A DNA stretch of 64,000 nt from Eledone cirrhosa (lineage: Eukaryota), in the NCBI GenBank assembly GCA_964016885.1, contig OZ024756.1:23064001-23128000 (forward strand), read 5' to 3'. Within the stretch, counting starts at the first letter, position 1, and each line of letters opens with the position of its first letter. The notes under the pieces are model-generated. The model did no database searches, was not told the origin of the DNA, and was given only the letters and a program-made list of their open reading frames with translations. Position numbers and translations under genes: made by a program. Positions 4,661-40,698 of the stretch are shown piece by piece.

Positions 4661-4998
4661 TGTCTGCGTTGTAGGTGCAGGTTGACCCATAATTGATGTA
4701 ACAGTTAAAATGCTATACGTAAATATATACGAATTCAAATATCTACATATTCAAATATTTGTTTTTTGTGTACTGTGTGAGGTATGGTGTACATGTGTGT
4801 GTGTGGCTGTGTGCGTGTGTATGTGTGTAGCTGTGTGTCTGTGTGCGTGTGTGTGGCTTTCATACTTGCTTCGATGCTACAGAAATCCCATCAGCTGTCG
4901 ACATCTAGAAATTCGGATAAGTTACTCGGTATAAATGCATGAGGTACTGTCTTCTTTGTTTATCTACAAACGCTAACATGCTATCTTAAAAAAAAAAT

Positions 4999-5100
4999 TT
5001 GAAAACACCGGTTCTCATCCGATCACCGAAGTTAAGCAACGTTAAGCCTACTTAGTATTTAGATGGGTGACCGTTTGGGAAACCAAGGTGTTGTAAGCAT
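4999..5100 (+). rRNA. 5S_rRNA: 5S rRNA-derived copy, 5'-truncated and diverged (probable pseudogene)
   Basis: TTGAAAACACCGGTTCTCATCCGATCACCGAAGTTAAGCAACG..TTAGTATTTAGATGGGTGACCGTTTGGGAAACCAAGGTGTTGTAAGC matches invertebrate 5S from about nt 19 to the end; T-run at 5114-5127. Confidence 0.88.
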
Positions 5101-6764: not shown

Positions 6765-6843
6765 GCAAATTAGGCTGCTCAGCCGTTAATTTTCATAAGG
6801 AAAGTATATACTTTCGAACGTTCAACTATCTGGCAGATGGGTA

Positions 6844-6888
6844 AACGGTGCTGATGATAGCTAACAAGCTTGAAACTAGTACATCGTT
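6844..6888 (+). ncRNA. Minimal type I hammerhead ribozyme
   Basis: Stem I AACGGTG/CATCGTT; CTGATGA; stem II AGCT-AACA-AGCT (closed by U.U); GAAA; palindromic stem III ACTAGT; GUA cleavage triplet, cut after 6881. Confidence 0.8.
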
Positions 6889-7044
6889 CCTGTGTCAGTG
6901 TTGAACAAAAAGGTGACGTGGTTGCCTTAACACCGTATGGCATAAATTCAGGCTGTTCAGTTTGTTTACAAACGAACAAAGCGACGTTAGCGCCGCTAAA
7001 CTGATACGTGCATATATGTATGTGTACCTGTATGCATATGTATA

Positions 7045-7084
<40 letters not shown>

Positions 7085-7321
7085 CATGCTACTGTACGTC
7101 TGTATACATATATGTATGTACGTATACATGCATACTTACATTTAAGTAAGTGCCATACTAAGAGTGAGAAATGAAATTTCGTTTTCATTTTGTTTTAATT
7201 TATCGTTTTCGGTATGCCTAACCGATTTAACTCACTCAATATGCAAATTAGGCTGCTCAGCCGTTAATTTTCATAAGGAAAGTATATACTTTCGAACGTT
7301 CAACTATCTGGCAGATGGGTA

Positions 7322-7366
7322 AACGGTGCTGATGATAGCTAACAAGCTTGAAACTAGTACATCGTT
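7322..7366 (+). ncRNA. Minimal type I hammerhead ribozyme (second tandem copy)
   Basis: Identical to 6844-6888 at an offset of 478 nt. Confidence 0.8.
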
Positions 7367-7522
7367 CCTGTGTCAGTGTTGAACAAAAAGGTGACGTGGT
7401 TGCCTTAACACCGTATGGCATAAATTCAGGCTGTTCAGTTTGTTTACAAACGAACAAAGCGACGTTAGCGCCGCTAAACTGATACGTGCATATATGTATG
7501 TGTACCTGTATGCATATGTATA

Positions 7523-10781: not shown

Positions 10782-10970
10782 AATAATTGTTTCTACGTTA
10801 GGCACAAGGCCAGCAATTACCCAGTGTATTACTGGTACTTTATTTTATCGACCTCGTAAGGATGAAAGGCAAAGTTAACCTCGGCGCTCTAATAGTACCT
10901 TAAACTGGTACTTTTTTTATCGACCTTGGAAAGATGAAAGACAATGTTGACTTCAGCTAGATACGAATGC
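10782..10970 (-). mobile_element. SINE family 1 fragments
   Basis: Reverse complement of the family 1 tail and body. Confidence 0.8.
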
Positions 10971-15739: not shown

Positions 15740-15870
15740 GGAAGAAATCTGCTGTACTTAGACCTAGAGGGGGGGATCGGCTCAGTCAGATTTAAAATAC
15801 TCTAAAAATCAACGTAGTTCAATACGGCGCCCCTATGACTCTCTCGGGAGTTAAAGGCCCATGAAATAGA
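15542..15870 (+). mobile_element. SINE family 2
   Basis: Head GGCGGTGAGTTGGTAGAGTCGTTAG..TTCAAATCCC, then (TC)n, then tail GGAAGAAATCTGCTGTACTTAGACCTAGAGG. Confidence 0.8.
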
Positions 15871-15882
15871 AGTATAGAAATC

Positions 15883-16016
15883 AATAATTGTTTCTACTTT
15901 AGGCACAAGGCCAGCAATTACCCAGTGCATTACTGGTACTTTATTTTATCAACCCCGTAAGGATGAAAGGCAAAGTCAACCTCGGCGGGATTTGAACTCA
16001 GATCGTAAAGGGACGT
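15883..16016 (-). mobile_element. SINE family 1
   Basis: Reverse complement of the tail through the B-box. Confidence 0.85.
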
Positions 16017-16773
<757 letters not shown>

Positions 16774-16801
16774 ATCAAAAGATGGTTAAAGGAGTTCCAT
16801 G

Positions 16802-16872
16802 TATTTTATTATGCGCATTTCAAAAACAAACATCATCATGCAATAATATTTGTGTTTTCATCAGATAAAACA
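16802..16872 (-). ncRNA. Type I hammerhead ribozyme (left arm)
   Basis: Exact reverse complement of 16998-17068. Confidence 0.85.
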
Positions 16873-16997
16873 GGAGAACATGATATGAAGGCTAAAAAAT
16901 ACTTGTGAATAGTGCAGTTTTAAATCAACATATCATATATGTTGATTTAAAACTGCACTATCCACAAGTGTTTTTTAGCCTTCATATCATGTTCTCC

Positions 16998-17068
16998 TGT
17001 TTTATCTGATGAAAACACAAATATTATTGCATGATGATGTTTGTTTTTGAAATGCGCATAATAAAATA
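16998..17068 (+). ncRNA. Type I hammerhead ribozyme (right arm)
   Basis: Stem I TGTTTTAT/ATAAAATA; CTGATGA at 17006-17012; ~15-bp stem II with G.U pairs; GAAA at 17049-17052; palindromic stem III ATGCGCAT; AUA cleavage triplet, cut after 17060. Confidence 0.85.
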
Positions 17069-17191
17069 CATGGAACTCCTTTAACCATCTTTTGATCTTA
17101 TATATTATGTATACTCCAGTCCTACAAACTGTAGAGTGCTTCTTATCCGATATCTGCATTGCTTTATTGTACTACAATAAAACTCACCTCC

Positions 17192-17194
<3 letters not shown>

Positions 17195-17274
<80 letters not shown>

Positions 17275-18119: not shown

Positions 18120-18829
18120 ATTTTAGTTTACTAGTGTGTGTTTACAACACTGACCTAAGAGAAGTATAAATAAATAAATAAATAAATAAATACATACATA
18201 CACAAGCACAATAACAACAAACATATAAACACACACTAGTAAACTAAGATAGAATACAATAACCAATACACAGTCACCCAAACACGAACACACATCAAAC
18301 AAAACACTATACACACACGCAAACGCATGCGCAGAGAAGACAAAAAAATAAACAAATAAATAAATAAACTGACTAAATAAAGATGGCGTAGGCATAGAAT
18401 GCAACGGGAGGAAACATAATAGCACCACTAACGACGTTGCAGATGTGCAACGAAAGAACTTTGTTAGGCTATATTTATGTGTTTGTGTCTATATTGTATC
18501 TGTATTTTTTACCGTTGGTCAATCAATGGTAACATTGAGGACCGAATAAATTAAATTAACCGATATAAAAGACACAAGCGAAAACCAACTAAACAGTGAG
18601 TGTGTTCTGTTATTAATTCTGGCAATATTATTACATATATATAGATACATATATATACATATATATACATATATACATACATACATATACATATATACAT
18701 ATATATGTATATATATGTATATATATGTATCTATATATATGTAATAATATTGCCAGAATTAATAACAGAACACACTCACTGTTTGCTTGGTTTTCGCTTG
18801 TGTCTTTTATATCGGTTAATTTAATTTAT
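18120..18829 (+). mobile_element. pLTR-like element with decayed HHR (18428-18462) and inverted duplication of its 3' end
   Basis: CTAACGA-C-GTTGCA-GATG-TGCAAC-GAAA; 18546-18640 is inverted at 18735-18829; homologous to 32887-33160 and 40280-40705. Confidence 0.7.
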
Positions 18830-19976: not shown

Positions 19977-20026
19977 CCTGTCACTATCTACCCACCAAAT
20001 TATACATTATACTGTAAACAAAAATA

Positions 20027-20332
20027 TAATTGTTTCTATTTTTGGCACAAGGCCAGCAAATACCTAGTACATTACTGGTACTTTATTTTATCGACATGAA
20101 AGGCAAAGTTAACCTCGGCGGGATTTGAACTCAGACCATAAAGGGCCGTAACTCTTTGCTGCAAAGCATGGCGGCCGACCCTCTACCGATGCTGCCTATC
20201 CAAGAAATATATAATTGTTTCTACAATAGGCACAAGGCCAGCAATTATCCCAGTGTATTACTGGTACTTTATTTTATCGACCCCCGTTAGGATGAAAGGC
20301 AAAGTTAATCTCGACGGGATTTGAACTCAGAA
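20027..20332 (-). mobile_element. Two adjacent SINE family 1 copies
   Basis: Copies at 20027-20200 and 20212-20332. Confidence 0.85.
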
Positions 20333-20424
20333 TGATCTCGAGTGGTAAATGTTTGTAAAAGAGTTCTTCCCCGTGTGTCACAATAAAAAGAAATTTATAC
20401 AAAGCAATGATAAACTTAATCATT

Positions 20425-22599: not shown

Positions 22600-22740
22600 T
22601 TGCTTTCTCAGTTGAGTATACTGGATCAACGTGAATTGAAATGTTTCGTTCAAAAACACAACAAAGAAATCCAGTCAAGGAATTGGACCCACGACAGTAT
22701 GATCGTAAGTCCAACATCTTTATCACTAGACCCCGAGCCT
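22600..22740 (-). mobile_element. CORE-type SINE head abutting the satellite
   Basis: Homologous to 40095-40212 and to the reverse complement of 50057-50200. Confidence 0.75.
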
Positions 22741-25468
22741 CATCAAACCGGGAAACAGTTTAAGTCTACTACCAGAAAAATTGTGGAAAGGTCCCTCAAA
22801 CGTGCTTTTACGCAACTTACATTTCCCAGTAAGCCTCGAGCCTTATCAAACCTGGAAACTGTTTAAGTGTACTACCGCAAAACTGGACGGTCCCTGGGAC
22901 GTGCCTCATCAAACCGGGAAATAGTTTAAGTCTACTACCACAAAACTGGAACGATCCCTCGGACGTGCTTTCACAAAGCTTCCATTTCCCAGTAAGCCTC
23001 GAGCCTTATCAAACCTGGAAACTGTTTAAGTGTACTACCGCAAAACTGGACGGTCCCTGGGACGTGCCTCATCAAACCGGGAAATAGTTTAAGTCTACTA
23101 CCAGAAAAATTGTGGAAAGGTCCCTCGAACGTGCTTTTACGCAACTTACATTTCCCAGTAAGCCTCGAACCTTATCAAACCTGGAAACTGTTTAAGTGTA
23201 CTACCGCAAAACTGGACGGTCCCTGGGACGTGCCTCATCAAACCGGGAAATAGTTTAAGTCTACTACCACAAAACTGGAACGATCCCTCGGACGTGCTTT
23301 CACAAAGCTTCCATTTCCCAGTAAGCCTCGAGCCTTATCAAACCTGGAAACTGTTTAAGTGTACTACCGCAAAACTGGACGGTCCCTGGGACGTGCCTCA
23401 TCAAACCGGGAAATAGTTTAAGTCTACTACCAGAAAAATTGTGGAAAGGTCCCTCGAACGTGCTTTTACGCAACTTACATTTCCCAGTAAGCCTCGAGCC
23501 TTATCAAACCTGGAAACTGTTTAAGTGTACTACCGCAAAACTGGACGGTCCCTGGGACGTGCCTCATCAAACCGGGAAAATAGTTTAAGTCTACTACCAG
23601 AAAAATTGTGGAAAGGTCCCTCGAACGTGCTTTTACGCAACTTACATTTCCCAGTAAGCCTCGAGCCTTATCAAACCTGGAAACTGTTTAAGTGTACTAC
23701 CGCAAAACTGGACGGTCCCTGGGACGTGCCTCATCAAACCGGGAAATAGTTTAAGTCTACTACCACAAAACTGGAACGATCCCTCGGACGTGCTTTCACA
23801 AAGCTTCCATTTCCCAGTAAGCCTCGAGCCTTATCAAACCTGGAAACTGTTTAAGTGTACTACCGCAAAACTGGACGGTCCCTGGGACGTGCCTCATCAA
23901 ACCGGGAAATAGTTTAAGTCTACTACCAGAAAAATTGTGGAAAGGTCCCTCGAACGTGCTTTTACGCAACTTACATTTCCCAGTAAGCCTCGAACCTTAT
24001 CAAACCTGGAAACTGTTTAAGTGTACTACCGCAAAACTGGACGGTCCCTGGGACGTGCCTCATCAAACCGGGAAATAGTTTAAGTCTACTACCAGAAAAA
24101 TTGTGGAAAGGTCCCTCGAACGTGCTTTTACGCAACTTACATTTCCCAGTAAGCCTCGAACCTTATCAAACCTGGAAACTGTTTAAGTGTACTACCGCAA
24201 AACTGGACGGTCCCTGGGACGTGCCTCATCAAACCGGGAAATAGTTTAAGTCTACTACCACAAAACTGGAACGATCCCTCGGACGTGCTTTCACAAAGCT
24301 TCCATTTCCCAGTAAGCCTCGAGCCTTATCAAACCTGGAAACTGTTTAAGTGTACTACCGCAAAACTGGACGGTCCCTGGGACGTGCCTCATCAAACCGG
24401 GAAATAGTTTAAGTCTACTACCAGAAAAATTGTGGAAAGGTCCCTCGAACGTGCTTTTACGCAACTTACATTTCCCAGTAAGCCTCGAGCCTTATCAAAC
24501 CTGGAAACTGTTTAAGTGTACTACCGCAAAACTGGACGGTCCCTGGGACGTGCCTCATCAAACCGGGAAAATAGTTTAAGTCTACTACCAGAAAAATTGT
24601 GGAAAGGTCCCTCGAACGTGCTTTTACGCAACTTACATTTCCCAGTAAGCCTCGAGCCTTATCAAACCTGGAAACTGTTTAAGTGTACTACCGCAAAACT
24701 GGACGGTCCCTGGGACGTGCCTCATCAAACCGGGAAATAGTTTAAGTCTACTACCACAAAACTGGAACGATCCCTCGGACGTGCTTTCACAAAGCTTCCA
24801 TTTCCCAGTAAGCCTCGAGCCTTATCAAACCTGGAAACTGTTTAAGTGTACTACCGCAAAACTGGACGGTCCCTGGGACGTGCCTCATCAAACCGGGAAA
24901 TAGTTTAAGTCTACTACCAGAAAAATTGTGGAAAGGTCCCTCGAACGTGCTTTTACGCAACTTACATTTCCCAGTAAGCCTCGAACCTTATCAAACCTGG
25001 AAACTGTTTAAGTGTACTACCGCAAAACTGGACGGTCCCTGGGACGTGCCTCATCAAACCGGGAAATAGTTTAAGTCTACTACCAGAAAAATTGTGGAAA
25101 GGTCCCTCGAACGTGCTTTTACGCAACTTACATTTCCCAGTAAGCCTCGAACCTTATCAAACCTGGAAACTGTTTAAGTGTACTACCGCAAAACTGGACG
25201 GTCCCTGGGACGTGCCTCATCAAACCGGGAAATAGTTTAAGTCTACTACCAGAAAAATTGTGGAAAGGTCCCTCGAACGTGCTTTTACGCAACTTACATT
25301 TCCCAGTAAGCCTCGAACCTTATCAAACCTGGAAACTGTTTAAGTGTACTACCGCAAAACTGGACGGTCCCTGGGACGTGCCTCATCAAACCGGGAAATA
25401 GTTTAAGTCTACTACCACAAAACTGGAACGATCCCTCGGGCGTGCTTTCACAAAGCTTCCATTTCCCA
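22735..25468. repeat. Satellite array, ~16.5 units of 163-167 bp, with a 991-bp higher-order repeat
   Basis: CATCAAACCGGGAAA recurs at 22741, 22907, 23070, 23236, 23399, 23565, 23732, 23895, 24061, 24227, 24390, 24556, 24723, 24886, 25052, 25218 and 25384. Confidence 0.97.
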
Positions 25469-26899: not shown

Positions 26900-27297
26900 C
26901 ATCTGACGCTCTACCGATTTCTGCTAATCTACCGCCCGCCCTTGTATATTATATTAACGATTTCTAGTATAGGCACAAGGCCAACAATTTTGAGTGAGGT
27001 GAAAGTCAATTAAATCGACACCAGTGCATCACTGGTACTTTGTTTTATTGACCTCGTAAGGATGGAAGGTAAAGTCAACCTCGCCGGGATTTGAACTCAG
27101 AAAGTAAAGGGCCATAACTATGCTGCAAAGCATGACGTCTGACACTCTACCGATACTGCCAATACACCGGCCTATATTAATATGTATAAATATATTATAA
27201 TAATTGATTCTACATTTGGCACAAGGCCAGCAATTATCCCAGTGTATTACTGGTACTTTATTTTATCGACCCCGTAAGGATGAAAGGCAAAGTTGAC
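26900..27297 (-). mobile_element. Cluster of SINE family 1 copies
   Basis: Head fragment, a full copy at 26955-27170, and a 3' copy at 27200-27297. Confidence 0.85.
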
Positions 27298-29151: not shown

Positions 29152-29744
29152 GATAGAATAAAGCACCAAAGCGAGAGAATTGGGTGCTCATGCGCGTAGA
29201 TGCTATGAAATAACTTATAAAATAGGGTGAAGACCTTTAACAAACGGGATAATAAGTTGCTTGCATACATATATATATTCACACAAACACGTATGTATAC
29301 ACGCAGACATAATCATATTTAGAAATATATATTTATGTGTATACATAGATAGACATGTTTATGTTCCGATATTTATAGGTATGGGACAAGTGAGTGAGTG
29401 TGTTTCTGTGAGTGTGTGAGTGTGCGCGCACGCGTGCGTGTCTGCGTGCTAAAATGCTATTTATTCGTGATTATTTTTTCGCAGAGGAACAAGATTAATA
29501 TCCTCATTCCACTGCTCACGGCTTATTTGCATCTAAATATAGTTATTTAGTAATTAGTTTATATAAATATTTTAATTTTCTCCAATCTTTTCATAATTCA
29601 ATTTCCTAAATGTTTATACATTTATTATAGCTTGACAATATGAATTATGCCATCAAGATACGAACCTGAAATTAGGATTCATTCGAGAAAAGGTTTATCA
29701 TTCATGAGGTTTTAATTCCATTTTCTTTCCTCACTATTTTGTTT

Positions 29745-30152
29745 TGATTGGCAGTATCGGTAGAGCGTCAGACACCATGCCTTGTAGCATATAGTTAAGG
29801 CACTTTACGTTCCGAGTTCAAATCCTGCTGAGGTTAACTTTGCCTTTCATCCTTACCGGGTCGATAAAATAACGTACCAGTCACGCACTGGGGTCGATTT
29901 AATCGACTTTCCCCTCCCCCAAAATTGCTGGCCTTGTGCCTATATAAGAAACCATTATTTTGTTTTGATTGGCAGTATCGGTAGAGCGTCAGACACCATG
30001 CTTTGCAGCATAGAGTTATGGCCCTTTATGATCTGAGTTCAAATCCTGCCGAGGTTAACTTTGCCTTTTATCGTTACGGGGTCGATAAAACAAAACACCA
30101 GTAATACACTGGGGTTATCGCTGGCTTTGTGCCAAAAGTAGAAACAATTATT
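29745..30152 (+). mobile_element. Two head-to-tail SINE family 1 copies
   Basis: A long variant (with GTCGATTTAATCGAC hairpin) followed by a short variant. Confidence 0.9.
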
Positions 30153-30667
30153 GTGTTTATAATTATATATTCTCTTTGTTTTTTTCCGTTTTCACCAGTA
30201 ATGACATCACTACTGGAGCATGTTATATTCTTTTTTACAATATAAAAAAAAATGGTGTTTGAATTTAGTAATAACTTCTTATATGCCAACTTTCTCTTTT
30301 ATGTTTCATAGAAAATCTTGAGAATCGGTCATATCACTATTTGATAAGCCAAATCTGGCGAAACCTTTAAATGAGATCTAATTCCTGAGATCTTATTAAT
30401 CAGTCGCCTGAGGATTCGGATTGTGAAACTCCGAATGACGACACACAAACTCACACATACATACATACACAGATTCAGCCATGAATGTATATATATATAT
30501 ATATGTGTGTGTGTGTGCTAATCTTGTGCCTAGATATATAAAAGGGAATATTAGTGGAAATATTAGAAAACAGAGTGTCATAGCTGCTGCTGTTGTTATT
30601 ATTAAAGTTGAATTTTGTACCAAACATTAACAAAGAAAACGAAAAAAAATAGTATTACTAACGAAGA

Positions 30668-31352
30668 GGGCGGTAGATTGGCAGTATCAGTAGAGAGTCG
30701 GACGCCATGCTTTCCAGCATAGAGTTATGTCCCTTTAGGTCTGAGTTCAAATCCCGCTGAGGTTAACTTTGCTTTTCATCCTTACGGGATCGATAAAATA
30801 AAGTACCAGAAATGCACTGGGTGATTGCTGGCCTTGTGCCAAAAGTAGAAACAATTATTTTAGTTCGGTGGATTGGCAGTACCGATAGAACGTCAGAAAC
30901 CATTCTTTACAGTATAGCGTTATGGCCCTTTACGTTCTCAGTTCAAATCCTGCCGCGGTTAACTTTGCTTTTCATCCTTACGGCGTCGATAAAATAAAGC
31001 ACCAGTAATGCACTGGGGTAATTGCTGGCCTTGTGATAAAAGTTTTAATACTACTGCTACAAGGAGGGGGGGGGGGGGGATTAGCAGTACAATATCGGTA
31101 GAGCGTCGGACAATAATAATATGCTTTGTGGCATTGAGTTACGCCATGCTTTGTGGCATTGAGTTACGCCATGCTTTGCAGCATATAGTTATGTCCCTTT
31201 ACGTTCTGAGTTCAAATACCACCGAGGTTAGCTTTGCATTCATTCTTACGGAGTCAATAAAAGAAAGTACCAGTAACGCACTGGGGTCAATTTGATCGAC
31301 TTTCCCCTCCCTCCAAATTGCTGGCCTTGTGCCTATTGTAAAATTTATTATT
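30668..31352 (+). mobile_element. Three head-to-tail SINE family 1 copies
   Basis: Copies at about 30668-30862, 30866-31045 and 31080-31352. Confidence 0.9.
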
Positions 31353-31412
31353 ATTAGAACTGTTATAATTATCGTTGTTTTTTTTATTACTGCAATACTA
31401 ATTTTCGTATAT

Positions 31413-32547: not shown

Positions 32548-32550
<3 letters not shown>

Positions 32551-32730
32551 AGGACAATGCGAAGTGAATATGTTAGGGTCCTTAATTAATTGAGCCGTTA
32601 TACATAGTTCAATGACGAGAGATATCGTGATTTCTTCAAACAGAAATCACGATATCTATCGTCATGGAAATATGTATAACGGCTCAATTAATTAAGGACC
32701 CTAACATCTTCAACCTCGCATTTTCCTCTT
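32548..32730. repeat. 183-bp fold-back palindrome next to (TA)n
   Basis: ~88-bp arms around a TTCAAAC loop; the right arm carries GAAATATGTA (HHR 3'-half-like) at 32667-32676. Confidence 0.85.
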
Positions 32731-32812
32731 TATAAATATACTCTGTCATCCTTCTTTTTAGGAAGTAATATGACATTGAGTGCTAGAAGTGAATTGTATT
32801 CTTGTATACCGA

Positions 32813-32848
<36 letters not shown>

Positions 32849-32886
32849 TAGCGAGGTTTTTTATATGAAATCGTGTGTCGAAACAA

Positions 32887-33152
32887 ATATTGTTATACTT
32901 GGGGAGGGTCATATTTGTGTAATATTGCCAGAATTAATAACAGAATTAAATTATGTAAACTATATATATGTGTTTGTGTCTATATTGTATCTGTATTATT
33001 TTTGACCGTCGGTCAGTCAATGGCAACATTGAGGACCGAGTAAGTTAGATCGCAGATATAAAAGACAGCGAGAAGCGAAAACCAACCAAACAGTGAGTGT
33101 GTTCTGTTATTAATTCTGGCAATATTACACAAATATGACCCTCCCCAAGTAT

Positions 33153-33160
<8 letters not shown>
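32887..33160. mobile_element. Element with 59-bp terminal inverted repeats (18120/40280 family)
   Basis: ATATTGTTATACTTGGGGAGGGTCATATTTGTGTAATATTGCCAGAATTAATAACAGAA is inverted at 33102-33160. Confidence 0.85.
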
Positions 33161-33195
<35 letters not shown>

Positions 33196-33200
33196 ACAAG

Positions 33201-33367
33201 ACGAAGGCTAGATTTCATAATTTCTTTAATTATACAATAGCCAGGACGTATTTCTGTTGTCCGCATGACATAGATTGCCTCATGGTATCGTGATGTAGCC
33301 ATCTCACAACAGAAATATCTATTATGGTTAATGTGTAAATAAAGAAATTATGAAATCTAGCCTTCGT
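33201..33367. repeat. Imperfect fold-back next to (TA)n
   Basis: ACGAAGGCTAGATTTCATAATTTCTTTA is perfectly inverted at 33340-33367; the match extends imperfectly inward. Confidence 0.8.
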
Positions 33368-34054
33368 ATTTTTATATTGATGTATTTAACGCTGTCATAC
33401 GACACCAAATCAAAATTGATAGAATACATATAACGTTGAGTGCTTTTCCCATATTGAAGCATGATTTTCTTTATCACAGCACCTGCTACTATTTAGGAAA
33501 CACCCTATAACACATACGAACAGAGAGAGAGATGCGGGAAGAGAGAGACAAAGAGGTAAACATCTATAATGCCTAATATAAAAACGTGTGTGGTGTACGA
33601 ATGTGTGTTTAAAATGTTGCTTGTTTTATGCAATGATGTATACCAATAAACATTGTTTCTGTCAAGTTGTATTTCAACTCCAACCAGGCTGTCTTTCTCA
33701 AGCAACTTTATATTCAGGCAAAAAAGGTAAATTGCCACCAGCAATTTTATGGCTTACAAGTTTTATCGATAGTCTCATATGTCGCTTAATTATTGCCTGC
33801 CTGAAGCAATTATTTTGTAACAGCATTGTACTCTTTGGTTGGTTTATTTTTTATGCCTTGTATTTTTGCCAACGTTTCCTTATAGCTTTGTGAAATCGCA
33901 TTCAGTTTTCTCAGAATATAGTAGTTGTTTTTTTTTATTAAACTTCATACACTTAATATGTATGTGCTACATTAGGTTGCAGGCTGCAGTTATGGCTACC
34001 ACTGTAGGAATATATTGGATATCCTACATATGTGTGTGTCTGTCTGTGTATGTT

Positions 34055-35142: not shown

Positions 35143-35181
35143 AAGAAGGGAGAGTGCTCTATATATGCTACAGAGCTAGCT

Positions 35182-35353
35182 AATTATGTAATAAACAACA
35201 CAATACAATTATTCCATTTACCAAAGGTTTCACGAAGACAGGCGAGCTCGACAGAGACGTCTGAAATCGTTCATCAGAAGGAAATGAGCTCGCCTGTCTT
35301 CGTGAAAACTTTGGTAAATGGAATAATTGTATTGTCTTGTTTATTACATAATT
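35182..35353. mobile_element. Fold-back element carrying a hammerhead
   Basis: 68-bp arms at 35182-35249 and 35286-35353. Confidence 0.85.
35212..35283 (-). ncRNA. Type I hammerhead ribozyme
   Basis: Minus strand reads TTCCTT-CTGATGA-ACGA..TCGT-GAAA-CCTTTGG-TA-AATGGAA; stem III is A-U, C-G, C-G with a UUU loop; stem I has one bulge. Confidence 0.75.
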
Positions 35354-39841: not shown

Positions 39842-40212
<371 letters not shown>

Positions 40213-40282: not shown

Positions 40283-40698
40283 GAAAACACACACAGGACA
40301 AAATGAAAACACACACACACATAGAACAAACAACCAACCAACAATAAATAAATAAATAAATAAACAAATAGATAAATGAACACAAACACACACAGACACC
40401 CGGATGTGGCGCATGCGCAAACTGAGCACACAACACACACACAGAAACAAAATGGCGTAGGATAGAAGAAAGGAAAGGCACAGAAACAAAGAAAGGAATC
40501 CCCAGTCACTGAAGAGGTCACAGAGTGTGTGACGAAAGGACTATGACTATATATAAACAACTATCTGGTTGTGGAACCAACCAACCAACCAGAAATTTAT
40601 AAGTTTGTAGATTTGTAAATTTATAAATATATAATAAATTGAAGTGAAAGCAACTGGTGCGTGTGTTTCTTATTGGCAGCATGACCCTCCCAAAGTAT

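Follow-up and report, generated by a model that had tools for sequence, protein, structure and literature searches.

The 64,000-nucleotide stretch of Eledone cirrhosa DNA analyzed here (the window) contains a palindrome with a hammerhead ribozyme motif on both strands, which raises the question of whether this structure is an RNA device, in which long-hairpin formation and ribozyme folding are played against each other, or the trace of the event that inserted it. Our analysis points to the second answer: the palindrome consists of two head-to-head copies of a high-copy hammerhead repeat in a (TA)n microsatellite, and probably arose when the short pLTR end of a Penelope-like element (PLE) was inserted in a single, recent event by a PLE enzyme encoded elsewhere.

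Self-comparison of the window confirmed the 329-base palindrome reported in the initial annotation, with two 163-bp arms, two mismatches, and a 3-nt loop (Table 1). Its centre scored 161, as compared to 4 for the runner-up centre in the window, and none of 20 shuffled windows yielded a close inverted repeat; pairing between the arms extends six further bases into ATATAT, reaching 16765/17105. Both mismatched pairs (16900/16970 and 16908/16962) are transitions. The left arm carries both departures from the family consensus, and the right-arm positions 16962 and 16970 are absent from the 18 variable places of the family. While the left arm adjoins (TA)n directly, the right arm continues for 96 nt (17100–17195) before (TA)n is reached; this one-sided tail and the (TA)n target belong to the element and had been overlooked in the initial annotation. 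Of the unmasked positions in the window, 2.4% are located within 10 nt of (TA)4, and (TA)n is present on both flanks of the palindrome, where any target-site duplication is unreadable.

Table 1. Features of the palindromic locus and its surroundings (positions in the window).
Feature	Position	Strand	Remarks
Left microsatellite	16016–16770		(TA)n-rich; likely insertion target; read from sequence
Left arm	16771–16933	-	inverted short-ended copy, tail absent; holds non-consensus bases 16900 and 16908
Type I dimer-type hammerhead, left arm	16802–16872	-	C3 at 16864; predicted cut after 16810
Head-to-head junction	16934–16936		3-nt loop CAT between ATAT runs
Right arm	16937–17099	+	forward arm of high-copy repeat family; family left edge at about 16937
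Type I dimer-type hammerhead, right arm	16998–17068	+	predicted cut after A17060
One-sided tail	17100–17195	+	96 nt; present in about a third of family depth
Predicted bulged tail stem	17112–17140	+	TACTC 17112–17116 / GAGTG 17134–17138; 3′ bulge of 2 nt at 17132–17133; inner stem 17117–17120/17128–17131
AATAAA	17176–17181	+	15 nt before tail end; possible polyadenylation signal, weak
Right microsatellite	17196–17259		(TA)n; read from sequence

The family to which the arms belong was surveyed by aligning four of 24 listed sequencing runs to positions 16925–17190. Contigs were obtained from three of them, namely X1 (which may be the source sample), X6 (a different sample from the same organism, library kind unrecorded), and X4 (another organism); from the fourth, X22, none of 12,836,656 reads aligned, which has no weight as a test. 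Part of the arm and tail is present in 20 runs from 15 studies, none of them listed as RNA; half or more of the arm and tail words were found in 10 rows, representing seven organism labels and six studies, and the 10 of 20 rows with under half the words were not counted as evidence. With 4,200 aligned contigs in X1, 509 in X6, and 30 in X4, the arm is plainly a high-copy repeat, summed contig depth being no measure of copy number. Twelve of the 30 X4 contigs are at least 99% identical to the arm and tail; possible explanations of these near-identical copies are that the organisms are close kin, that the repeat was transferred horizontally, or that the samples contained foreign DNA. The arm family may already be named in Repbase or Dfam.

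Family depth begins at about 16937 in all three runs, and six of the 24 listed pieces start at exactly this position. Sixteen X1 contigs carry unlike sequence before 16937 (agreement 0.54), and the summed depth over 16925–16933 in X1 is 0.25% of that over 16943–16951. At the other end, depth drops to one third (ratio 0.33) across 17096–17113, and the number of contigs passing into (TA)n is 58 at 17113 and three at 17188; 3′ ends in the family fall into two classes. A head-to-head junction unlike the focal one is present in a single X6 contig (depth 3), where different intervening bases connect 16936 to 16971 of the opposite strand. In one X1 contig, 16971 is linked to 17097, and the three joints listed include no end-to-start joint. 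The exact focal junction has depth in X1 only, the zero depth of X6 and X4 at 16925–16933 being a hole that proves nothing.

These data bear on two alternative origins of the palindrome. A fold-back read or assembly artefact, for which the missing exact junction in the independent samples could be cited, is highly unlikely: two transitions distinguish the arms, their outer ends and flanks are not alike, they are only 163 bp long and stop at the natural end of the family, and an opposite-strand joint is present in a contig of another sample (X6). Moreover, other palindromes of like architecture in the window are 74–97% matched, and such diverged palindromes cannot be read artefacts. It is also unlikely, if somewhat less so, that the palindrome is itself mobile, as a self-propagating hairpin that is either MITE-like or a PLE-mobilised hairpin RNA. 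Palindromic repeat families do exist (e.g., Harbinger in Xenopus; PMC5625713), the edge at 16937 is sharp in three runs, and the summed depth of the X1 loop bin (1,920, again no copy number) exceeds the contig depth of one copy (about 15–40). However, this loop-bin depth is the same 0.25% of the arm depth, the sequence before 16937 is heterogeneous, X6 holds a second junction type, and the one-sided tail breaks terminal symmetry. The end of a DNA transposon would not tolerate such broken symmetry. A MITE would show symmetric ends and a fixed centre common to its copies; we found a one-sided tail and heterogeneous centres.

Both arms carry a complete type I hammerhead core (CUGANGA, GAA, A15.1–U16.1, and H17). 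On the plus strand, C3 to A9 read CTGATGA (17006–17012), followed by GAA (17049–17051), A15.1 (17052), U16.1 (17059), and A17060 as H17. Stem I consists of 8 bp (16998–17005/17061–17068) with one G·U pair, stem II of 15 bp within 17013–17048 with three G·U pairs and one C·U mismatch, and stem III of the 8-nt palindrome ATGCGCAT (17052–17059). The minus-strand motif is identical to the plus-strand motif; both hammerheads point outward and their C3 positions are 142 bp apart. Our final, energy-based hammerhead descriptor matched four places in the window as compared to one in 100 shuffles, and a palindromic stem III was present in none of the shuffle matches; this descriptor overlooks looser candidates at 6851/7329, 35277, 46456, and 57434, while a descriptor in which stem II must begin with four consecutive pairs misses the focal hammerhead. 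The pair closing stem II is A-U here, in place of the G10.1–C11.1 pair described as highly conserved (Cervera 2014, PMC4209133); family variants at this pair include G at 17013 (7-contig X1 consensus) and C before GAAA (7-contig X6 consensus). Searches against Rfam identified no hammerhead at the gathering score or among the 71 matches at E ≤ 10. At the locus, Rfam gave no match at the gathering score, with 77.8 bits for the best hairpin match (160 needed); the Rfam miRNA matches were rejected as generic hairpin matches below threshold.

Judged by its self-complementary stem III, the predicted ribozyme is a dimer-type hammerhead of PLEs. In a single copy, stem III forms with a folding probability of about 0.001, and the two-strand 8-bp duplex has a predicted energy of −10.5 kcal/mol; the "intact" hammerhead claimed for each arm therefore holds for the type I core of both arms, but only in the sense of a dimer-type motif. 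Single dimer-type motifs were reported to give no cleavage and dimers little (PMC4209133), as also stated in a review (PMC6765202), and the Anolis PLE ribozyme is described as cutting only with protein present and as dispensable for insertion (PMC11167929). By analogy, a single copy of the predicted ribozyme is not expected to cut; an isolated arm that failed to cleave would thus refute nothing.

Stem II had been described as wobble-rich, with many G·U pairs that suggested selection on RNA. The 15 bp and the presence of G·U pairs were verified, "many" amounting to three of 15; these pairs reflect the history of the family rather than this locus, whose two ribozyme copies are identical, and the argument for selection was not upheld. 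As a proof of RNA selection the G·U pairs were also rejected on another count: in a 7-contig variant consensus compared by hand, five of five stem II changes keep pairing with the 3′ strand of this copy, but all five are transitions, which break pairing at only two of 15 positions, so that the outcome has a chance of about 0.5 and is not strong evidence.

In a read-through transcript, the long hairpin foreseen in the initial annotation is indeed predicted, with −260 kcal/mol for the full palindrome versus about −10 kcal/mol for the ribozyme fold. The proposed competition between the two was not borne out, as transcription yields the antisense arm first and the hairpin is favoured by more than 200 kcal/mol; the folding probability of stem II is 2.5e-19 from the moment stem II is transcribed. 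Since the hairpin leaves the ribozyme fold at about 1e-19, a switch would have no balance to act on. In the isolated arm, stem I and stem II form with probabilities of 0.83 and 0.88, respectively, and stem I drops to 0.09 with the tail added. Stem II has a predicted energy of −9.1 kcal/mol in sense and −2.5 kcal/mol in antisense orientation. The ribozyme helices reach probabilities of 0.8–0.9 when transcription starts to the right of about 16880, and a transcript begun at the centre would carry the sense ribozyme only. These folding models suggest that the outcome for the ribozyme would be set by the transcription start site and not by a conformational balance.

Three of the 18 variable places of the family differ strongly between the two samples of this organism. 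The changes 17059 T>C (15.6%), 17061 A>G (5.4%), and 17068 A>G (6.2%) in X6 have shares of 0.03% or less in X1, i.e., they are 176- to 3,124-fold commoner in X6, while the other 15 places are similar in X6 and X1 (0.4–6.7-fold). All three are located in the paired arm and are of the types expected from A-to-I editing of either arm; no prior report of three A>G/T>C changes nearly private to X6 was found in a literature search. Against editing, all three fall within a stretch of 10 nt, which a single expressed variant copy would also explain, and X6 is another sample. The small size of X6 suggests that it is an RNA library, and A-to-I editing has about an even chance of being the explanation. 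The proposed role of the palindrome as a source of dsRNA or siRNA and as an ADAR substrate is in line with an editing-like signal at the level of the family in one library, though it would be a by-product rather than a selected switch.

A functional RNA switch or self-silencing device, in which the host or the element exploits the hairpin–ribozyme balance, is very unlikely. Better folding of the sense stem II, formation of the ribozyme helices from start sites right of about 16880, and the changes enriched in X6 would fit such a device. By contrast, each transcript holds one sense ribozyme and stem III requires a partner, the palindrome junction is rare in the family (the depth ratio of 0.25% given above), and no gene was found in the window (none of 265 open frames matched Pfam). 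The same shape is present in unrelated repeats of the window whose arms break off inside the ribozyme, and arms cut in this way argue against a ribozyme switch. The self-silencing switch proposed for this locus is thus left unsupported by the folding, and PLE insertion explains the geometry.

Insertion of a PLE accounts for several features at once. PLE insertions are described as often having an inverted 5′-truncated copy at the 5′ end, a tail of 30–40 bp at one end, and a bias for microsatellites (10.1101/2021.04.23.441226; PMC8557442; PMC8969392), and head-to-head palindromic PLE junctions have been described and ascribed to self-priming (PMC3846280). The head-to-head inverted copy, the tail at one end, the hammerhead in the repeat, and the microsatellite target of EN+ PLEs were all found here; the inverted-pLTR-plus-tail architecture is thus already known for PLEs, and the focal locus is a young, clean example of it. 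The locus shares with the EN+ PLE insertions described by Arkhipova 2013 (PMC3846280) and Craig 2021 (PMC8557442) the head-to-head copies, the palindromic junction, the one-end tail, the hammerhead, and a Neptune- or Naiad-like (TA)n bias; unlike those, it has no ORF between the arms, a tail of 96 nt as compared to the 30–40 in print, and two arms that begin at the same 5′ position. Since Naiads are without hammerheads, the clade would be Neptune-like. The Pfam search linked no RT or GIY-YIG gene in the window to the family, and a truncated or non-autonomous copy is expected to lack an RT ORF within 64 kb; no matches were obtained when metagenome and viral contigs were scanned for patterns.

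Minimal, dimer-type PLE hammerheads are among the closest known systems. In Schistosoma, dual minimal hammerheads are located 100–700 bp apart on opposite strands (PMC4209133), and the minimal PLE hammerheads reported there (Cervera & de la Pena 2014) resemble the present ones in their type I core, short palindromic stem III, and opposite-strand pairs; they differ in having a stem I of 4–5 bp (8 bp here), a stem II of 7–8 bp (15 bp here), and G10.1–C11.1 in place of the A-U found here. The Poseidon element of Anolis (PAc; Frangieh 2024, PMC11167929) resembles our element in its AT-rich target, two 3′ ends bounding the tail, a predicted tail stem-loop, and an intact hammerhead within inserted copies, i.e., an uncleaved template; the PAc ORF starts in stem II, whereas the corresponding ATG frame ends after 14 codons here, and the target here is (TA)n.

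Likeness to animal non-LTR retrozymes, which are short, non-coding, likely PLE-derived, and carry a type I hammerhead (10.64898/2026.07.22.740005), suggests a further origin, in which a retrozyme monomer underwent a later inverted duplication through DNA repair unrelated to insertion. This would agree with a unit that measures about 260 nt, carries a type I hammerhead, and lacks an ORF, and retrozyme monomers are described as common and derived from pLTRs (10.64898/2026.07.22.740005). Retrozymes are head-to-tail by definition in that source, whereas the arms here are head-to-head and the window contains no tandem or direct copy of the unit; the short 3′ end of the family is exactly where the left arm stops and meets (TA)n, like an independently primed end; and recurrence of this pattern in several unrelated elements speaks for a mechanism acting at insertion. 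We consider this origin highly unlikely, and the least probable of those discussed.

The insertion that we favour would start with a PLE enzyme that binds the RNA at the bulged tail stem and nicks (TA)n on both strands. cDNA synthesis on the uncleaved RNA would be primed at each nick, once from the short end (17099–17113) and once from the tail end (17195), and the two cDNAs would run to the 5′ edge of the RNA (16937) and be joined there; such twin priming would yield exactly this orientation and the one-sided tail. On the plus strand, the left (TA)n enters the element antisense from the short end, and on the minus strand the right (TA)n enters it antisense from the tail end, so that each arm looks like a first-strand cDNA for which the adjoining flank served as primer. 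Cleavage and extension of both strands of AT-rich DNA were reported for a purified PLE protein, which starts at two internal RNA sites bounding the tail and uses uncleaved RNA as template (PMC11167929); priming of both strands by the protein and two internal starts on the RNA favour twin priming over fold-back. Twin priming with cDNA ends joined at the 5′ edge is, in our judgement, somewhat favoured by these considerations. Fold-back of one cDNA at the central ATAT has a smaller though real share of the probability: the symmetric arms, the 3-nt loop, and the self-complementary ATAT are equally compatible with it and with twin priming. Twin priming is favoured by other copies whose arms are unequal and separated by spacers, and fold-back by the 3-nt loop. 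The intact hammerhead in each arm implies templates that were uncut or religated.

In this PLE insertion the ribozyme would be a passenger: cleavage would require another copy of it and probably PLE protein, and any read-through transcript is predicted to bury it completely; read-through transcripts would be ADAR and Dicer substrates as a by-product. Related fates are described elsewhere: in flies, inverted Penelope regions are matched by siRNAs (PMC3681739), and heavy editing affects a lizard Penelope as well as palindromic frog repeats (Porath 2017, PMC5625713). The palindrome shares with these hyper-edited repeats (Xenopus Harbinger and lizard Penelope) and inverted Penelope regions the self-folding and the predicted long dsRNA; editing and small RNAs were shown there, whereas the signal here is indirect and comes from one library of unrecorded kind.

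The window contains 13 rows of close inverted repeats (11 after merging three that overlap), 74–100% matched. Palindromes at 32556, 33203, 35189, and 57704 are unrelated in sequence and have (TA)n at one end and a tail at the other; their arms keep GAAA–stem III remnants (recognized by eye) or a whole hammerhead. Overall, repeats of unrelated sequence with a hammerhead or its remnant are located at 32548–32810, 33196–33445, 35143–35353, 45901–46210, 57241–57520, 57693–58060, and 59310–59515, most of which have inverted arms and a tail on one side only; the motif GAGTGCT is present, in the orientation of the element, in six of the seven. Solo hammerhead-like motifs at 40500–40550 (plus strand) and 46330–46465 (minus strand) end in (TA)n and are without this tail motif. 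Two 265-bp copies (6769–7033 and 7247–7511), 100% identical and 478 bp apart, each have a hammerhead-like core with a palindromic stem III (ACTAGT), and could be either a head-to-tail pair able to dimerise or an assembly duplication.

Other repeats and RNA-like sequences were also identified in the window. A related repeat at 18469–18823 and 32880–33157 has short inverted ends adjoining (TA)n and no clear hammerhead. One repeat at 52192–52330 and 58433–59113 forms a complex cluster of direct and inverted copies split by TA runs. A tandem array (22734–25468) consists of units of about 166 bp with a mutual similarity of 94%, and the search revealed no hammerhead in it; diverged single units are located near 40100 and 50000. 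A dispersed SINE-like repeat, which we take to resemble an octopus repeat, is present in many copies (59–144, 1385–1598, 10782–10886, 15866–16015, 20017–20334, 27018–27297, 29732–31363, 52419–52604, and others). A 5S rRNA-like copy (4984–5099; 65 bits) has a decayed 5′ end and is probably a pseudogene.

Alignment of three tails revealed a common GAGTGCT with ACTC upstream. This motif occurs 11 times in the window as compared to 3.3 expected, and none of 100 shuffles reached 11. With the three discovery elements removed, GAGTGCT adjoins two of eight other inverted repeats (P about 0.01) and is located 143–187 nt behind two of 10 other hammerhead-like cores (P about 0.02). It is one-sided in all five inverted repeats that have it, and four of the 11 sites do not fit in orientation (9188, 19802, 35152, and 59683). 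Six of the seven fitting sites, i.e., sites in six unrelated elements, have the ACTC partner, and in all six a 2-nt 3′ bulge gives the longest inner stem (4, 6, 2, 5, 1, and 6 bp), although the inner sequences differ. Shuffling of the tail stem in held-out elements gave P values of 0.003, 0.0005, and, in the third, 0.36. None of the 18 variable family places is located in the tail stem (about 1.6 expected; not significant), and folding z-scores of whole tails are weak (−0.3 to −1.5), the signal consisting of motif and bulge and not of energy. A 2-contig X6 consensus has an A-run after the tail end, 15 nt past AATAAA (agreement 0.67; weak). A literature search found no description of a bulged ACTC/GAGTG tail stem, and a full-text search for GAGTGCT with "Penelope" gave nothing on PLE RNA by title.

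The conserved motif and bulge make the predicted tail stem a candidate recognition or binding site of a PLE reverse transcriptase. A broader model, which we regard as possible but short of probable, is that this genome hosts unrelated short, non-autonomous PLE passengers that share the bulged tail stem (2-nt 3′ bulge and covarying inner stem), which would recruit a (TA)n-targeting PLE enzyme; twin priming from both sides of the stem would then make ribozyme-silencing hairpins genome-wide, A-to-I edited on both arms. The palindrome as initially reported matters little by itself; the value of the locus is as a minimal model, with a shared 5′ edge, two 3′ ends bounding a tail, and a tail stem common to unrelated neighbours. 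The formation of PLE inverted repeats and tails has been named as an open question (10.1101/2021.04.23.441226), and if the tail stem is the enzyme binding site, the origin of both would become testable with an RNA of 260 nt. PLE insertions in this animal would, in that case, also be marked as a dense source of long dsRNA.
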